NCBI GenBank assembly: GCA_039621445.1
Contig: CP154954.1
Location: forward strand, 8,248,634 to 8,312,633
Length of the DNA stretch: 64,000 nucleotides
Direction: 5' to 3'
From: Euglena gracilis
Taxonomy: Eukaryota
Shown here piece after piece: positions 12,201 to 33,200 of this stretch (position 1 is its first letter; the number at the start of each line of letters is the position of its first letter). The notes below the pieces were generated by a model that was not told the DNA's origin, searched no databases, and saw only the letters and a program-made list of their open reading frames with translations. The position numbers and the translations under genes are program-made.

Positions 12201-15200
12201 TCACACACACACACACACTCTCTCTCTCTCACTCACACACTCACACACTCACACACTCACACGCACGCGCGCGCGCGCACAGCACACCACCCTGCTTTGT
12301 CGACTGTGCAGGTCCGGCAGAGGCAGCCGATAGAGGCGCTGGAGTTGCAGAGGGCAGACTGGCTGCAGTTTGGGGGCCAGCAGCGGTTGCTGTTTGGGCG
12401 GAGCCAGTGCTTTGGGGGTTGGCAGCAACTGTGTGGGGGGAGGGGGGCAGACGACAACCAGGGTTTAACCAATATTGTTTACAACATGGATTCAAAAAAA
12501 CCAATCGACCAAAAAAATGCAGAAAATTGCCACCCCCAAAATGCATTAAATTTAATTAAAATTTGTATTTGACGTTTGGTTCGATTAGAAAAATTTAATT
12601 AATTCATTAAATAATTGGTTAACAGGAAAAAATATTTAATTCCCACCCGAAAGCAGTCTGAACGTGGCCTAGCAATGTGTGGGACGTTGGCACACCAACA
12701 CCAATGAAACTGGAAAAAAAAAACTGCAACAAACCTCCCCAAACATGCAGACACACACAAAAAATACAAAAAATGTCGCACATATTTTTTTAAAAAATAA
12801 TGAAAACCACTGCTGTTTTACACCAATGTTTACAAAATTGTGTGCAAATGGTTTTTTGTGTCTTTATTTGCACCTGAATTATTAAATTCCTATTCTGAAT
12901 TAACAAATTGTATCTCAACTTTCCGTTGTTTGGGGGTCAGGTGTGTAAATGTTTTATTTTTCTTCAACCCAAACAATAAAACCAAGCGAAGCAATACAAT
13001 CATTTCACATGCTTTAAATGATATAACACAATACATCATTCTCAAAAGATCAAAAAAAATATTGAGAAAAAACTTGGGGTTTCCCTCCCATGCCTATCGG
13101 AGCGCAACCCACCTTCCTGCGACGCAGAAGCAGCCTGGGACGCGGTGGCGGTGGACTGGATGGCGAGGGGGGCCACCGTCAGGCCGGGCCCAGCAGTCGG
13201 CGCGGCAGTGGCCGGGGCCGCCCCTGCAACACACAAGCAAACCGCTGGAACGGCGGTGGGCTGGCAGCGTCGGAGGGACAGCAGTGTGCACTGGGGGAGG
13301 GTCCTTTTTAAGGCTGGGCGGTCACTGGGGTTCTTCATCCATGTGGGTGAACAATTCTTCATCCGGATAGGGGGGCTCCACTTTTGGGGGGTTGAGTGGT
13401 GACAGAAAATTTTTTTGCCAAGTCCCTCTGGGGGTGCCCACTCGGTCAATGGTGATCTTTGTATGCATAACCATGATAATACACACGCATATGCATAAAA
13501 TATATAGATGGACATATACGCACATACATACATGCGTATACACATACATACATACATACATACATACATACATACATACATACATACATACATACATACA
13601 TACATGCATACATACATACATACATACATACATACATACATACATACATACATACATACATACATACATACATACATTCATACATACATGCATACATACA
13701 TGCATACATACATACATACATACATACATACATACATACATACATACATACATACATACATACATACATACATACATACATACATACATACATACATACA
13801 CACATACATACCACGGTTGGCGTTTTTGGTTTTGTTTTCAAAAAATGCAATTTTTCAAAATAAAACAGTATAAAAACATTGCTTTTTTGAAAACACAGAT
13901 TTTCTTATATTTTCCTTAAAAAATGGGCCTTTTGGGGAAAGGCAGAAAACCATACTGTGGGAGACATGAACGAAAAAAATGATACATTTGTTTTTGTGGA
14001 TGTAGAACGGCCTGTAGCCAAAAAGAACCTTCCAACTGTCGCTGAATCAAGGCATGGCACATTTGAAAGGCTGCAGTGTTTCAGAGGGTTCACTCCTCAC
14101 TGTCTGATTGCCCCCCTCCCCCGGTCGTTTAAAAAAAACCCTGACCCACACACTGTGAAACTGCCCCCCAAAAATGGGTAATCTTTGATTTTATGCCATT
14201 TTGCATGTTGCAAAATAATCATTTTTTGAGGCAATTTTTAATTCATTGCCAAAGGCTGTCCTTTTGGATCCAAAAATAGGTGCTAAATAAAATGGGTCTT
14301 GAATGAAAAATAAGCCCTCCTGCAGGAAGGCTTCTTTGGGTGACGTTTTCAGCAAAAAAAAACCAAAGTGCACCCAGGGTCCCCACCCACCCACCCACCC
14401 CTGGAGGGCCCCCAGGGGGGGGTCCCACCCACTCAAAATGGCCAAAAAATCGCGAAAACACCAAAAATAGCACCTTTTTCAAAAAATTTCGGTGCCTTTC
14501 GCGCCGAAAAGTATATCCCACCCCCCTCCGGGGGGATCCCTGGCGGGGGGGCTTGCCAAGACCTACCAACCCTACCCCCCCCTGGGGTGCAAAATAAAAA
14601 AACCCCTGGTGTAGGTGCTTTCTGGGGGGCATCCCCCCCAAAAAATCCCAATGGGGCTCAAGTTTTGTAGTTGTATAAAAATCAGCCGAGGGATCTTTTT
14701 GGGGGGGTCTGATTTGGGGGGTACATCGATGGATAATGTCAGGCAATGTCCTGGAGATGTGGCGTGGACACGGGGGTTTGCGGGGGCGACACATCACCCA
14801 CATGGGGCGGGGGGAGGCCAGCTGGCAATCATAGGCACAAACGTGTTGCATTGGGATTGGGGGCAAGTTCTACCGAGCCTAACACCGATGGGCAAAACGA
14901 AAATGTCAGCCCTCAGACCCGCCACAGCACAGCCAGGGGCGCGGCGCACACCGCAATCGCCACCATCAAAGCCGCACGCTTGCACGTTGCAGGCGGGGTT
15001 GCACTGCGAGTTGCCGATCCACGAGAACGGGCAGCCCGCCACGCACAGTGGCAGCGCTGGGAGGCGACGCAATCGGGCCGTGGCGCAGCTTCAGCAATAG
15101 CCGGGCGGTTGCGCAGGAAGCCATTTGTTGTTGGCGGCTGTCATACAACTGCCGCCAACAACAAATGGTCAAATGCGGGGGGGGGGGCAAGGCTGTATGG

Positions 15201-30200: not shown

Positions 30201-33200
30201 CCTGCCCCGCCCTGGAGAGAGGAGGTTCGGGATCAAAACCAGTCAGCACCCCCCCTGGGAAGCTCCCCCAACCCTGGGAGAGATCAGACCACACCACCAC
30301 GAAACAACAGCACGAATGAGGCGGACCTTGTGTGCCAGCCTGCTGGAGGGGGAGGGCGGGGGCCGTGGCAGGGGTGGCCGGCAGGGCAACCGGCATGATC
30401 GGGGGTTGGGTGGTCACAGCTTTGGGGCCAGCTTTGGCTGTGGGCAGGGGTGGGAGATGTCTGGGGACAGGGGGGGAGTGAAGCCGCTCACTGGGCGTTG
30501 GGAAACATTTGGGGACAAACCTGGGGTTGACAACCATGCAAACGTATTATCAGAAGAGGAGGTTCACAGCTGCATGGGAGGTCGCCTGCTTGGCAGGGCC
30601 ATTGATTATAATTGTCTAGCCCCAGCCCCCAAAACAAAAACCACTCAAATGGACCTGCTCGGGTTTCTGTCATGCATCTGAATGAAAAGCCCCTCTGGCT
30701 TCTTATCAAGGCTCCCGGGACCCCACCCAGAACTCACCCCCCCCCACCTGCCCATCTACCTCAAAACTGAAAGACTTTCCATCCACCCCCTGGGTGGGTC
30801 CTGCTGGCTGCTGGGCAGGCCCCAGGTGGTTCCGGAAAACAAGCAAAGCCCGTATGTCTGTGGGTGGGTGGTGTGGTGGGGGGGGGGGGGGATGTGGGTG
30901 TGGGTGTGGGTGTGGGGTGGGTGTGGGTGGGGGTGTGGGTGTGGGTGTGGGTGTGGGTGTGGGTGTGGGTGTGGGTGTGGGTGTGGGTGTGGGTGTGGGT
31001 GTGGGTGTGGGTGTGGAAGGTGTGGGTGTTGGTTGGTTCATGGGAGTGTCTGTGCATACCTTGATTTTTCAAAATGCGCTGAATTGGTCATTTTTTTTAA
31101 AAGTGACACGATGTATGGTTCAAAAATGCAGCGCAATGGCTCCAAAAAAAACATAATGGAACAGAGATGCCTCATAGCAACTGGGGATACAACTTTGGGT
31201 AGGGGTGGGGAAAATGCAATTTTGAAGAATTTTAAATTGTTGTATTGAAATATCTTATAAATCTCCTTTTTTGACATAAATGTATCAAATGGCAATTCCA
31301 AGAACAGCCTTCTGAAGTCCCACCCTGCCCCAGTGGTGGGGGGGGGGGTTCGGCAAGCCAGCAGTTTTTTCTGGCCAGCTACTCCCAGCTGGGCTGCGAA
31401 CCCCCAGGGTGGGTGGGTTCCCCCACCCACTCAGCAGGCTTCTTGTCTGTTTATGGCCGGCGCTAACTTCACTTCTGGCCGAGTTTGTGTGGTGAGTGGC
31501 CAGGGACCCCTTACACCAGTGCTCTTGTGTTGCTCCCCCTGGCCGGGTGAGCAACTCTGGTGTAATTCCAGTGCTGTGGGGACATGCACTCACCTTGTGT
31601 GGCGGAACCACCCCGTGGGTGGGTCCGTGGGTTTGCGCGAAACCCGGGGGTTTCTGACTTTGGCGCGACCAGATCCGGGGATCCAGCCCCGGACCCCCTC
31701 CCTTAGGCTTGTGCTTACCGACCGGGGGGGAGGGGGGTGGGTGGGTGCTTTCGGGTGCCTGCCCCTAGCAGGCATACCCCCCCGGGGGGGGGGGTCCGGG
31801 GGGCCAGAATTTTTTCATTGAAAATGGCCTTTTCCGGGGGGGGGTCGGATGGGTGCTATAGGGTGCCTGCACCCCCCCCTGTGGGGTAGGCACCCGACTG
31901 AGCACAAGATGCCTGACTGAGCACAGGTGCCTGACCCCCCCTTAGTTGCACTAAGGCTTCTTGTCTGTTTATGGCCGGCTCATACCTGACCCCCCCCCGG
32001 GGGGTCTTCCGGGGCGAGTTAGTTAAAGAAGACCCCCGGGGTCGAGTTGAAATAAACTTTTCGCTGCCCGGCAAAACCAGGCTGGACCAAAAGATTCCAA
32101 AGCACTGAAAGTTTTGGAAAAAATCAATAATGATAGGGCCATTTTTGTGTGGTTTTTGCTTTTTCACCTCAAAATTTTGGCAGAAATGGCAACCCACCTG
32201 GATTTCACACACACACACACACACACACACACACACACACACACACACGCACGCACACACACACACACACCACAGTCGCCCCCGTCGAAGCCGCATGCTG
32301 GCACATTGCACGCCGCGTCACACTGCGAGTTGCCAATCCAAGAATAAGGGCAGCCAGGTGCGCACAGCGGCTGATCTGCGGAGAAAAAAAACCGCCATTT
32401 TACCTTGAAAAAAAAAGCTCAATAAAATTTTGAGGTTTGAGGGGAAATGGGTGCCAAAATATGGAATTGGATTTCTGAGGTCATTCAAGAGGAAACGTAC
32501 AAATTCTGGGTCCCCTCAGGGGGGGGGCAGTAGTTAAACAAGGGGGTTAGACTCCCCACTCGCATTTAAGAAGTGGGCCCAGACCCCAATTTGCATGTGT
32601 TTTCGCACTTCCCACGAGAGATGTCACGGACAAATGTATAATATGGAAGGCTAACTCCCGGCAGAGGGTTTGGGTTTCTTAAAAGGGATAGGGTCAGGAC
32701 AAAGATTTAGATTTGTTTGGCCCAAAAGAGACATAAATTCGGCCTGAATTTTGGCCTAAGTTGTGGTCTAAATATGCCTGACCTCCTAAAACTCTAACCC
32801 AACACCTAAAACAACAGAAAATGCAAAAAAAAAACTTTTCAGAAAATGGACCTTTCCATCTAGCTGTTGGCTCCCCATGGGGTCAGAAGTGAGATGCTGC
32901 CTTTCAAGCTAATTCTTGCCTTTCAAGCTAATTCTTAAGTTAAAAATGGCAAATCACACACAGAACTTCCGTGGGAGATGCAAAAATATCAGCAAAAGAA
33001 CGGGTAGCCTAAAACACTCAGATGTGCAGCACAGCGCAAACCCCCCAGCATCCCAAATGTGGTGAGAATCCAAACCCCACCACCCCATCCCGTGGCGGGG
33101 AGCCCCCGTGACAAAAACTCAACTTTTGTTTCAGATGGAGAAAAGTTTTATTCAAGACCCAAACAGCACAAAGAGGACAAACAGCACAATTTGGAGCACA

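Follow-up and report, generated by a model that had tools for sequence, protein, structure and literature searches.

In one large gene, two adjacent exons, each encoding a Notch/LNR module, carry inserts of 100 nt and 741 nt that break the Trp codon between its second and third base. These inserts are probably real, homologous euglenid nonconventional introns, whose actual splicing we infer from the DNA. The junction predicted by the nonconventional-intron code is in both copies the junction that restores an intact LNR. The gene lies in a 64-kb stretch of DNA, referred to here as the window.

LNR exons and their host

The six-frame motif scan of the 64-kb window detected the whole LNR motif at four places and its second half at exactly six, all on the minus strand. 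The exons and the two inserts are the following (a slash marks the border between insert and exon):

32271..32375, minus strand: intact LNR exon, 105 nt, AG/GT flanked (PF00066, E 3.2e-11)
29773..29877, minus strand: intact LNR exon, 105 nt (motif scan, PF00066, X20 contig)
24601..24705, minus strand: intact LNR exon, 105 nt (motif scan, PF00066, X20 contig)
21452..21488, minus strand: 37-nt first piece of split LNR copy 2, with an AG acceptor ahead of 21488 (alignment, junction search)
20711..21451, minus strand: putative nonconventional intron of copy 2, 741 nt, GAT-CAG...CTG-GATTG/G (junction search; code from PMC12501133)
20643..20710, minus strand: 68-nt second piece of split LNR copy 2, followed beyond 20643 by a GT donor (alignment, motif scan, junction search)
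20363..20458, minus strand: Ala/Pro/Thr linker exon, 96 nt, immediately downstream of copy 2 (covered with 5 mismatches by a spliced X20 contig)
17647..17683, minus strand: split LNR copy 1, first 37 nt (alignment, junction search)
17547..17646, minus strand: putative nonconventional intron of copy 1, 100 nt, AGT-CAG...CTG-GACAA/G (junction search, folding)
17479..17546, minus strand: split LNR copy 1, last 68 nt (alignment, motif scan, junction search)
14952..15056, minus strand: intact LNR exon, 105 nt (motif scan, PF00066, X20 contig)

The first-pass annotation had described four LNR copies as single 105-nt exons and two as split 37+68 nt at the same point in the Trp codon, and all of its coordinates check. 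The Pfam family PF00066 (Notch/LNR; six Cys and Ca-binding Asp/Asn) was matched by 4/4 intact exons with E values of 1e-9 to 3e-11; the scan covered these four, and the LNR status of the two split copies comes from alignment. Of the columns invariant among the four intact copies, 26/26 and 25/26 are preserved in the split copies once these are spliced in silico, all Cys, Asp and Trp residues are retained in both, and AG precedes and GT follows the exon in 6/6 LNR copies, split ones included. LNR exons and Ala/Pro/Thr linker exons alternate in one large modular surface-protein gene.

The window is Euglena gracilis-type DNA and the host is a euglenid. The translation of six IFT52 exons found in the window is identical to residues 1-215 of the eukprot entry EG_transcript_9433, the next best named match being Eutreptiella, followed by Rhabdomonas-type entries. 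Nonconventional introns were not found in IFT52, all five of its introns within the window being GT-AG.

Anatomy of the two inserts and fit to the intron code

An exhaustive search detected a single junction restoring the 34-codon LNR in copy 1, where the exon ends at 17647 and resumes at 17546 (intron of 100 nt), and eight protein-level junctions in copy 2, all giving 741 nt and including 21452/20710. The Euglena nonconventional-intron code, which was defined genetically, is 5'-N3CDG...CH'GN5-6/R (PMC12501133). The sole frame-restoring junction of copy 1 fits this code, and so does one of the eight possible junctions of copy 2, at the same codon position as in copy 1. The borders at these code-compatible junctions are not GT/GC-AG (AG..AA in copy 1, GA..TG in copy 2), which bears out the earlier description of the inserts as nonconventional. 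CAG stands exactly 3 nt inside the 5' border in both (AGT-CAG, GAT-CAG), and the complementary CTG is followed by 5 nt and a purine-initial exon (CTG-GACAA/G, CTG-GATTG/G), the spacer lengths of 3 and 5 nt being identical between the copies despite diverged spacer letters. CAGG at +4..+7 and CCTG at -9..-6 match the E. gracilis consensus (PMC11170887). The same annotation had taken the empty paralogs as controls, and this use holds, the four uninterrupted copies fixing the required spliced product.

The lengths of 100 nt and 741 nt and the shared ends, also claimed before, agree with the junction search and the end comparison. The inserts share 14 consecutive 5' bases, with about 0.016 expected at the synonymous rate; the 13-nt 5' motif CAGGGATTTGTTG has just two mismatch-free occurrences in the 64 kb, one at the start of each insert, and no further copy of this end was found in the window. 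GTCAAAG..CCCTGGA is common to both 3' ends, and both 3' spacers share a 'GA' start that is not derived from the target. The interiors are not alignable: apart from a C-rich patch of 19 nt and an 8-mer nothing aligned, and homopolymer runs are not adequately controlled for by shuffling.

Folding of both introns had been proposed as a check, and its outcome differs between the copies. The CAGGG/CCCTG core is able to pair in both inserts. In copy 1 the ends pair in the MFE and centroid structures, and the duplex of -25.7 kcal/mol is reached by 5/500 shuffles; in copy 2 the end duplex of -15.8 kcal/mol is no better than shuffles (202/500 reach the same) and the 5' end is paired internally in the whole-intron MFE structure. 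No Rfam family was matched in the window (0 matches).

The inserts resemble the nonconventional introns of E. gracilis and E. agilis (PMC3935182, PMC4770533, PMC11170887, PMC12501133) in non-GT-AG borders, CAG at +4..+6, CTG at -8..-6, the 3-nt and 5-nt spacers, the purine-initial downstream exon, inverted ends that could pair, short direct repeats that make the copy 2 border slidable, and a host gene whose other introns are conventional. No structural difference was detected, although terminal pairing is weak in copy 2. PMC11282704 describes nonconventional introns as excised in the form of full-length circular RNA after the conventional introns. In the LNR gene the flanking conventional GT-AG introns would first be removed by the spliceosome, and the insert would then be removed by a separate euglenid pathway reading CAG (3 nt in) paired with CTG (5 nt in) and the purine-initial exon; cutting at 17647/17546 and 21452/20710 would rebuild a complete LNR.

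Expression and selection on the split copies

The RNA runs X20, X21, X22 and X24 were aligned to positions 14800-32500. The LNR gene is expressed and spliced in X20 at neighbouring exons: a 151-nt contig covers just the exon 29773..29877, its flanks unaligned on both sides (spliced), and a 226-nt contig matches only the exon 14952..15056, its remainder matching elsewhere (spliced). Among the X20 contigs listed, one runs unspliced across the donor of the exon 24601..24705. No read or contig among those listed joins 17647 to 17546 or 21452 to 20710, as the RNA runs examined contain next to no transcripts of the gene. The LNR exons are nearly without reads, and most aligned reads match only partly, on poly-G/C repeats (1757/1763 in X21). 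According to three raw RNA runs, the depth is 0 to 0.15 in bins 17164-17754 (the copy 1 pieces) and 20119-20709 (the second piece of copy 2), and 0.3 to 0.76 in bin 21301-21891 (the first piece of copy 2), where the listed differences and joints lie at 21613-21780, outside the exon piece. The X20 mean depth of 0.41 in bin 17164-17754 is compatible with one low-depth contig over ~105 nt and is not evidence.

The 40-aa read-through of copy 1 gave no candidate in the protein database search, and 40 aa of an intact copy gave three candidates, none scoring. The profile of the four intact exons detected 1526 LNR proteins, and among the best 150 of these the identity to the six copies does not exceed 25/34; therefore no transcript-derived protein of the LNR gene was found.

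The split LNR copies are under purifying selection. The pair differs by six synonymous and three nonsynonymous changes (pS 0.257, pN 0.038, ratio 0.15, binomial P 0.006), an estimate from nine differences only, in which gene conversion among paralogs could mimic constraint.

It is quite unlikely, in our estimate, that the split copies are no longer functional exons but pseudo-exons, inactivated by a transposon insertion and skipped, with the code fit a by-product of the CAG...CTG ends of the element. Skipping would keep the frame because the LNR exon is 105 nt long and phase-symmetric, the highly repetitive protein could tolerate the loss of two modules, no RNA read or contig among those listed shows inclusion of the split copies, and copy 2 end pairing is at shuffle level. 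However, the pN/pS of 0.15 since divergence, the preservation of every Cys, Asp and Trp and of the AG/GT flanks in both copies, and spacers of unchanged length under diverged letters argue against it.

History of the inserts and a candidate MITE source

The first-pass annotation had proposed one gain of a nonconventional intron followed by module duplication, and the evidence divides. The same site, the shared ends, the adjacency of the split copies and their overall identity of 89.5%, the highest among the LNR exons, are in its favor, but the tree of the six LNR exons, suggested as a check, did not recover the split copies as sisters: sisterhood appears in 22% of bootstrap trees in the ML analysis of the 105-nt exons, and the AU test does not reject it (p 0.28). 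One gain followed by module duplication is plausible from these comparisons. In this order of events, a short inverted-repeat element (MITE-like, probably hAT-type) would have inserted into an LNR exon and later been copied together with it, and the longer intron would have grown by nested insertions, a 269-nt MITE among them.

We give a modest minority chance to real nonconventional introns with another history, in which they are older and were precisely lost elsewhere (e.g., in the ancestor of 32271/29773), or were spread by gene conversion between paralogs. Such a history keeps its place because of the tree, the mosaic identity and the homology ending near the exons: in the best ML tree 32271+29773 fall within the group of the split copies (support 78/93), and the two split copies are kept apart; over the 37-nt half, both split copies match 14952 at 31/37 positions and each other at 30/37, whereas the 68-nt half favors the split pair (64/68); and homology between the two split modules stops ~10-20 nt outside the exon pieces, none being detectable beyond exon and intron ends. 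Against it, sisterhood is not rejected by the AU test, the split copies are neighbours with the highest overall identity, the non-target 'GA' is shared by their 3' spacers, and a single gain requires fewer events than a gain with losses.

Two independent insertions of related elements into the same target site of two paralogs are very improbable. The interiors lack convincing similarity and elements with 8-bp target duplications have been active in the region, but both inserts occupy the same nucleotide position in 2/6 paralogs, there is 14-nt identity at their 5' ends, the 3' spacers have letters in common that the target did not supply, and the 64 kb hold no other copy of such an element. 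A candidate source of the inserts is the MITE family of the window:

10963..11326, no strand assigned: MITE belonging to the family of the nested element, TIR CAGGCATTTGCTTA, with a perfect 8-bp target duplication
15924..16350, no strand assigned: degenerate MITE of this family, flanked by an exact 8-bp repeat
20746..21014, no strand assigned: nested MITE inside the 741-nt insert, 269 nt, TIR CAGGCTTGTGCT.., 8-bp target duplication 7/8
44312..44723, no strand assigned: further MITE of this family, flanking 8-mers agreeing 7/8

The later MITE noticed before in the longer insert proved exact at 20746-21014, with 14-nt terminal inverted repeats and flanking 8-mers agreeing 7/8, and a related copy was detected at ~31704-31934. 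The family has CAGG...CCTG ends (CAGGC..TGCTTA) and 8-bp target duplications. hAT-type MITEs make an 8-bp target duplication and have a TIR starting with CAG. A MITE origin of nonconventional introns has reportedly been proposed since 2013.

The LNR introns resemble hAT-type MITEs in starting CAGGGAT and in one end that is 16/21 identical to the family of the window, but they lack a clean 8-bp duplication and the likeness is not significant for the other three ends. For the 5' ends, 16/21 is reached by 4/696 CAGG-starting controls, and the 13/21 of the other intron by 66/696; the 3' ends give 11/21 (248/696 controls) and 10/21 (417/696). The resemblance to the MITE family, at one end only, is suggestive. 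No 8-bp target duplication was found around CAGGG...CCCTG of the LNR introns, where the flanks agree 5/8 (copy 2) and 1/8 (copy 1), which is compatible with decay.

The 3-nt and 5-nt spacers add up to one 8-bp target duplication, so an exonic element would leave with one duplicate and the frame would be restored. We tentatively suggest, with rather less than even confidence, that the nonconventional splicing code could be RNA-level precise excision of CAGG...CCTG, 8-bp-duplicating, hAT-like MITEs. The window would then present three stages side by side: free MITEs with 8-bp duplications, a MITE of this type inside an intron, and the two LNR introns, which are old and have similar ends. Neither the 3+5=8 link nor a named donor family was found in the papers searched and the passages of them examined; the supplementary tables of the cited papers may hold the repeat-length distribution.

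Presence beside an empty site and direct repeats at the junction are shared with intron 4 of gapC, a recent gain in E. agilis ACOI 323 (PMC4770533); that case lies between strains and has full 8-nt repeats, whereas the LNR case concerns paralogous exons in one gene with 5/8 nt left. The 8-nt direct repeat at one new intron was explained in 2016 by break repair (PMC4770533 as well). The introners or MITE-derived spliceosomal introns of Micromonas, Aureococcus and dinoflagellates (reviewed in PMC11282704) are likewise short inverted-repeat elements that turn from exonic insertions into introns, with the target duplication contributing to exact restoration; they have spliceosomal GT/GC-AG borders made from element and duplication and form large near-identical families, whereas the LNR introns have non-canonical borders and no family in the window.

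Two more nonconventional introns are not news, because this kind makes up the majority of identified E. gracilis introns (16,151/28,337; PMC11170887). The LNR locus is nevertheless a clean internal control, in which four uninterrupted paralogs specify the spliced product to the nucleotide and the 2025 code predicts the same junction. If the MITE link is true, young nonconventional introns are expected to show a maximum at 8 nt in direct repeats and border slidability, and to have ends that group with CAGG...CCTG MITE families. Taken together, an intron kind ordinary for Euglena provides here a tidy natural before-and-after example of intron gain, and the locus places a candidate source, the MITE family, beside the introns, by which the long-standing idea of a MITE origin would become a countable prediction.

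The modular LNR gene and its neighbours

We detected a single long modular gene on the minus strand, reaching from ~33.6 kb down to the window start. A six-frame motif scan placed the second half of the LNR (Lin-12/Notch repeat) at six sites, every one of them minus-strand; four of these sites carry the full motif. All four intact LNR exons match Pfam PF00066 (E 1e-9 to 3e-11), and two further copies, copy 1 and copy 2, are interrupted by inserts.

LNR exons of the modular gene
32271-32375, minus strand, intact LNR exon, 105 nt, AG before and GT after, PF00066 match
29773-29877, minus strand, intact LNR exon, 105 nt, AG before and GT after, PF00066 match
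24601-24705, minus strand, intact LNR exon, 105 nt, AG before and GT after, PF00066 match
21488-20643, minus strand, split LNR copy 2, LNR interrupted by insert
17683-17479, minus strand, split LNR copy 1, LNR interrupted by insert
14952-15056, minus strand, intact LNR exon, 105 nt, AG before and GT after, PF00066 match

Linker exons rich in Ala/Pro/Thr lie between and downstream of the LNR exons, and their 3' ends consist of Gln-Gln plus one base, followed by GT (14 such ends counted, 23592 to 1529). Every LNR exon has a split codon at both edges, with two bases at the start and one at the end, so the phases of linker and LNR exons agree. Downstream, at 1529-10413 (minus strand), at least 12 Ala/Pro-rich Gln-Gln linker exons follow without LNR exons. 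Since linker exons persist to 1529, the gene continues beyond the start of the window and is longer than 32 kb. A transcript-derived protein of this gene was not found in the protein databases by profile search (best 150 of 1526 matches).

Contigs of the run X20, which we guess to be RNA, contained spliced fragments of the gene, limited to 14951-15057, to 29773-29878 (flanks unaligned at both sides) and to 20363-20459, the 96-nt linker exon directly after copy 2; a contig was unspliced across the donor of exon 24601. Three raw RNA-seq runs with the same species label, each sampled at ~5-6%, gave a depth of 0 to 0.15 in the bins that contain both parts of copy 1 and the latter part of copy 2, and of 0.3 to 0.76 in the bin with the first piece of copy 2, where the differences and joints listed lie at 21613-21780, outside the exon piece. 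RNA on the split pieces of either copy was absent among the joints and records listed for X20 and the three raw runs. Nearly all raw reads placed were on poly-G/C repeats. Pile-ups on short poly-G/poly-C blocks (20823-20844, 23338-23357, 26113, 27175) showed many opposite-strand and back-going joints, and their reads look repeat-derived or artefactual, not like transcripts of the LNR locus.

The first six exons of the IFT52 gene were detected on the plus strand at 45973-57498; the remainder of the gene was not found within the window.

IFT52 exons
45973-46077, plus strand
46163-46230, plus strand
55585-55846, plus strand
56324-56375, plus strand
56632-56731, plus strand
57375 onward, plus strand

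Translated, they reproduce exactly residues 1-215 of the protein eukprot EG_transcript_9433, with Eutreptiella gymnastica as the next named match; this identifies the window as Euglena gracilis or a very near relative. Each of the five introns between these exons is GT-AG, and one extends over 9354 nt. The region ~58000-64000 is a repeated GC-rich block (about 0.6) with near-identical open frames every ~1167 nt on both strands, one frame being open for 1178 codons up to the window end.

Junctions, constraint and the nonconventional-intron code

An exhaustive junction search, with recovery of the 34-codon LNR as the criterion, gave a sole solution for copy 1 (exon end 17647, restart 17546, intron of 100 nt). 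Copy 2 gave eight protein-level solutions, each of 741 nt, because its insert is flanked by short direct repeats; the junction 21452|20710 proposed in the first-pass annotation is among these frame-restoring solutions. That annotation was right on the LNR copies and split inserts at every coordinate checked. The two inserts begin alike, with 14 consecutive bases in common at their 5' ends, and their 3' ends have GTCAAAG..CCCTGGA in common. The 13-nt insert start CAGGGATTTGTTG has two mismatch-free occurrences in the window, only at these two inserts.

Nonconventional introns are the second nuclear intron class of euglenids, comprising 16,151 of 28,337 identified introns in E. gracilis, with the consensus CCAGG at +3..+7, CCTG at -9..-6 and pairing ends (PMC11170887). 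The requirement defined by knock-in genetics is 5'-N3CDG...CH'GN5-6|R, with a 5' spacer of exactly 3 nt, a 3' spacer of 5 nt (6 tolerated) and a purine opening the next exon (PMC12501133). Every element of this code is present in both inserts. In copy 1 (AGT-CAG...CTG-GACAA|G) the code junction is the only frame-restoring one, and in copy 2 (GAT-CAG...CTG-GATTG|G) one of the eight possible junctions fits the code, at the same codon position as in copy 1; the non-GT-AG borders described earlier correspond to these junctions. Spacer lengths are equal in both copies though the spacer letters diverged. Most likely, the two inserts are genuine nonconventional introns of the Euglena type.

After in-silico splicing, 26/26 of the alignment columns that do not vary among the intact copies are retained in copy 2 and 25/26 in copy 1. 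Between the two split copies there are 6 synonymous and 3 nonsynonymous differences (pS 0.257, pN 0.038, ratio 0.15; binomial P 0.006 for at least 6 of 9 differences on synonymous sites), which argues for translation of both since their divergence and hence for precise excision of the insert. Conservation is higher at the intron termini than at synonymous sites, with a run of 14 identical bases (~0.016 expected), and the interiors of the two inserts allowed no alignment.

Folding of both introns, suggested as a check, bore out end pairing for copy 1, whose insert ends pair in the minimum-energy and centroid folds (end-to-end duplex -25.7 kcal/mol, matched by 5/500 shuffles), but not for copy 2, where pairing was at shuffle level (202/500 as good) and the 5' end pairs internally when all 741 nt are folded. 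The 100-nt intron contains, immediately within its 3' end (17552-17575, minus strand), a strong conventional-donor-like stretch, GGTGAGGTGAGT, which has no conserved counterpart in the 741-nt intron; an alternative splice from this stretch could lose the 68-nt piece of copy 1.

History of the two introns

On sequence grounds, the copy 1 and copy 2 introns are homologous, because they share the site and the ends; the 3' spacers of both begin with GA, which is not target-derived. The two copies are array neighbours with the highest overall identity of the LNR copies (89.5%). The first-pass annotation proposed one gain followed by module duplication, with a tree of the exons as a check. The same site and shared ends favor this proposal, but an ML tree built from the 105-nt exons did not pair the split copies as sisters (22% of bootstrap trees) and grouped them with 32271 and 29773 (support 78/93), while the AU test left their sisterhood unrejected (p 0.28). 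The similarity signal is a mosaic: over the first 37 nt, copy 1 and copy 2 agree at 30/37, and each of them agrees at 31/37 with 14952; over the remaining 68 nt, copy 1 and copy 2 agree at 64/68 and with any other copy at no more than 61/68. Homology of the two modules was not detectable beyond the exon pieces and ~10-20 nt of flank. The two LNR introns may also go back to a more ancient gain, with loss elsewhere, or have been passed on by gene conversion; one gain and then local duplication is plausible and the simplest reading.

MITE families and a possible intron origin

The MITE previously noted at 20746-21014 in the 741-nt intron was recovered; its inverted ends are 14 nt long and begin with CAGGC, and the 8-mers on either side are 7/8 identical. 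Relatives of this element occur repeatedly in the window: a search with the degenerate 14-nt end pattern (up to 2 mismatches) gave 11 matches vs 3.4 expected, a count reached by 0/100 shuffles.

Further copies of the nested-MITE family
10963-11326, flanking 8-mers 8/8
15924-16350, flanking 8-mers 8/8
44312-44723, flanking 8-mers 7/8
40235-42578, 2344 nt, CAGGCTTTTGCTTA ends, flanking 8-mers 4/8

The exact flanking repeats seen among 424 inverted-repeat candidates form a distinct peak at 8 nt (5 cases, one of them a microsatellite artefact, vs 0 at 7 and 0 at 9). An 8-bp duplication and a TIR starting with CAG are features of the hAT superfamily, to which the CAGG...CCTG family presumably belongs. 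Inside 40235-42578 lies an apparent nested 1815-nt inverted-repeat element (40385-42199) with its own exact 8-bp flanking repeat. Two 232-nt elements (45002-45233 and 48516-48747) belong to a second MITE family, with GGTACTTGTCTGTT ends; an exact 8-bp repeat flanks each of them.

The nested-type MITE ends CAGG...CCTG are four letters of the E. gracilis nonconventional consensus, and the code spacers of 3+5 nt equal one 8-bp duplication; therefore, a CAGG...CCTG MITE in an exon would be excised exactly with one duplicate. This 3+5=8 link was not found in the literature searched. A newly gained nonconventional intron of E. agilis gapC is reported to have eight-nucleotide direct repeats, attributed to break repair (PMC4770533), and a MITE origin of nonconventional introns has been proposed since 2013 (PMC3935182). 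One LNR intron 5' end agrees with a MITE end at 16/21 positions (equalled by 4/696 controls), and the likeness of the remaining three LNR intron ends was not significant; the flanking bases are still repeated at 5/8 in copy 2 and 1/8 in copy 1. The link of the MITE family to the LNR introns themselves is only suggestive. Nonconventional introns are a well-known and very abundant kind, to which the two inserts of the LNR gene most likely add.
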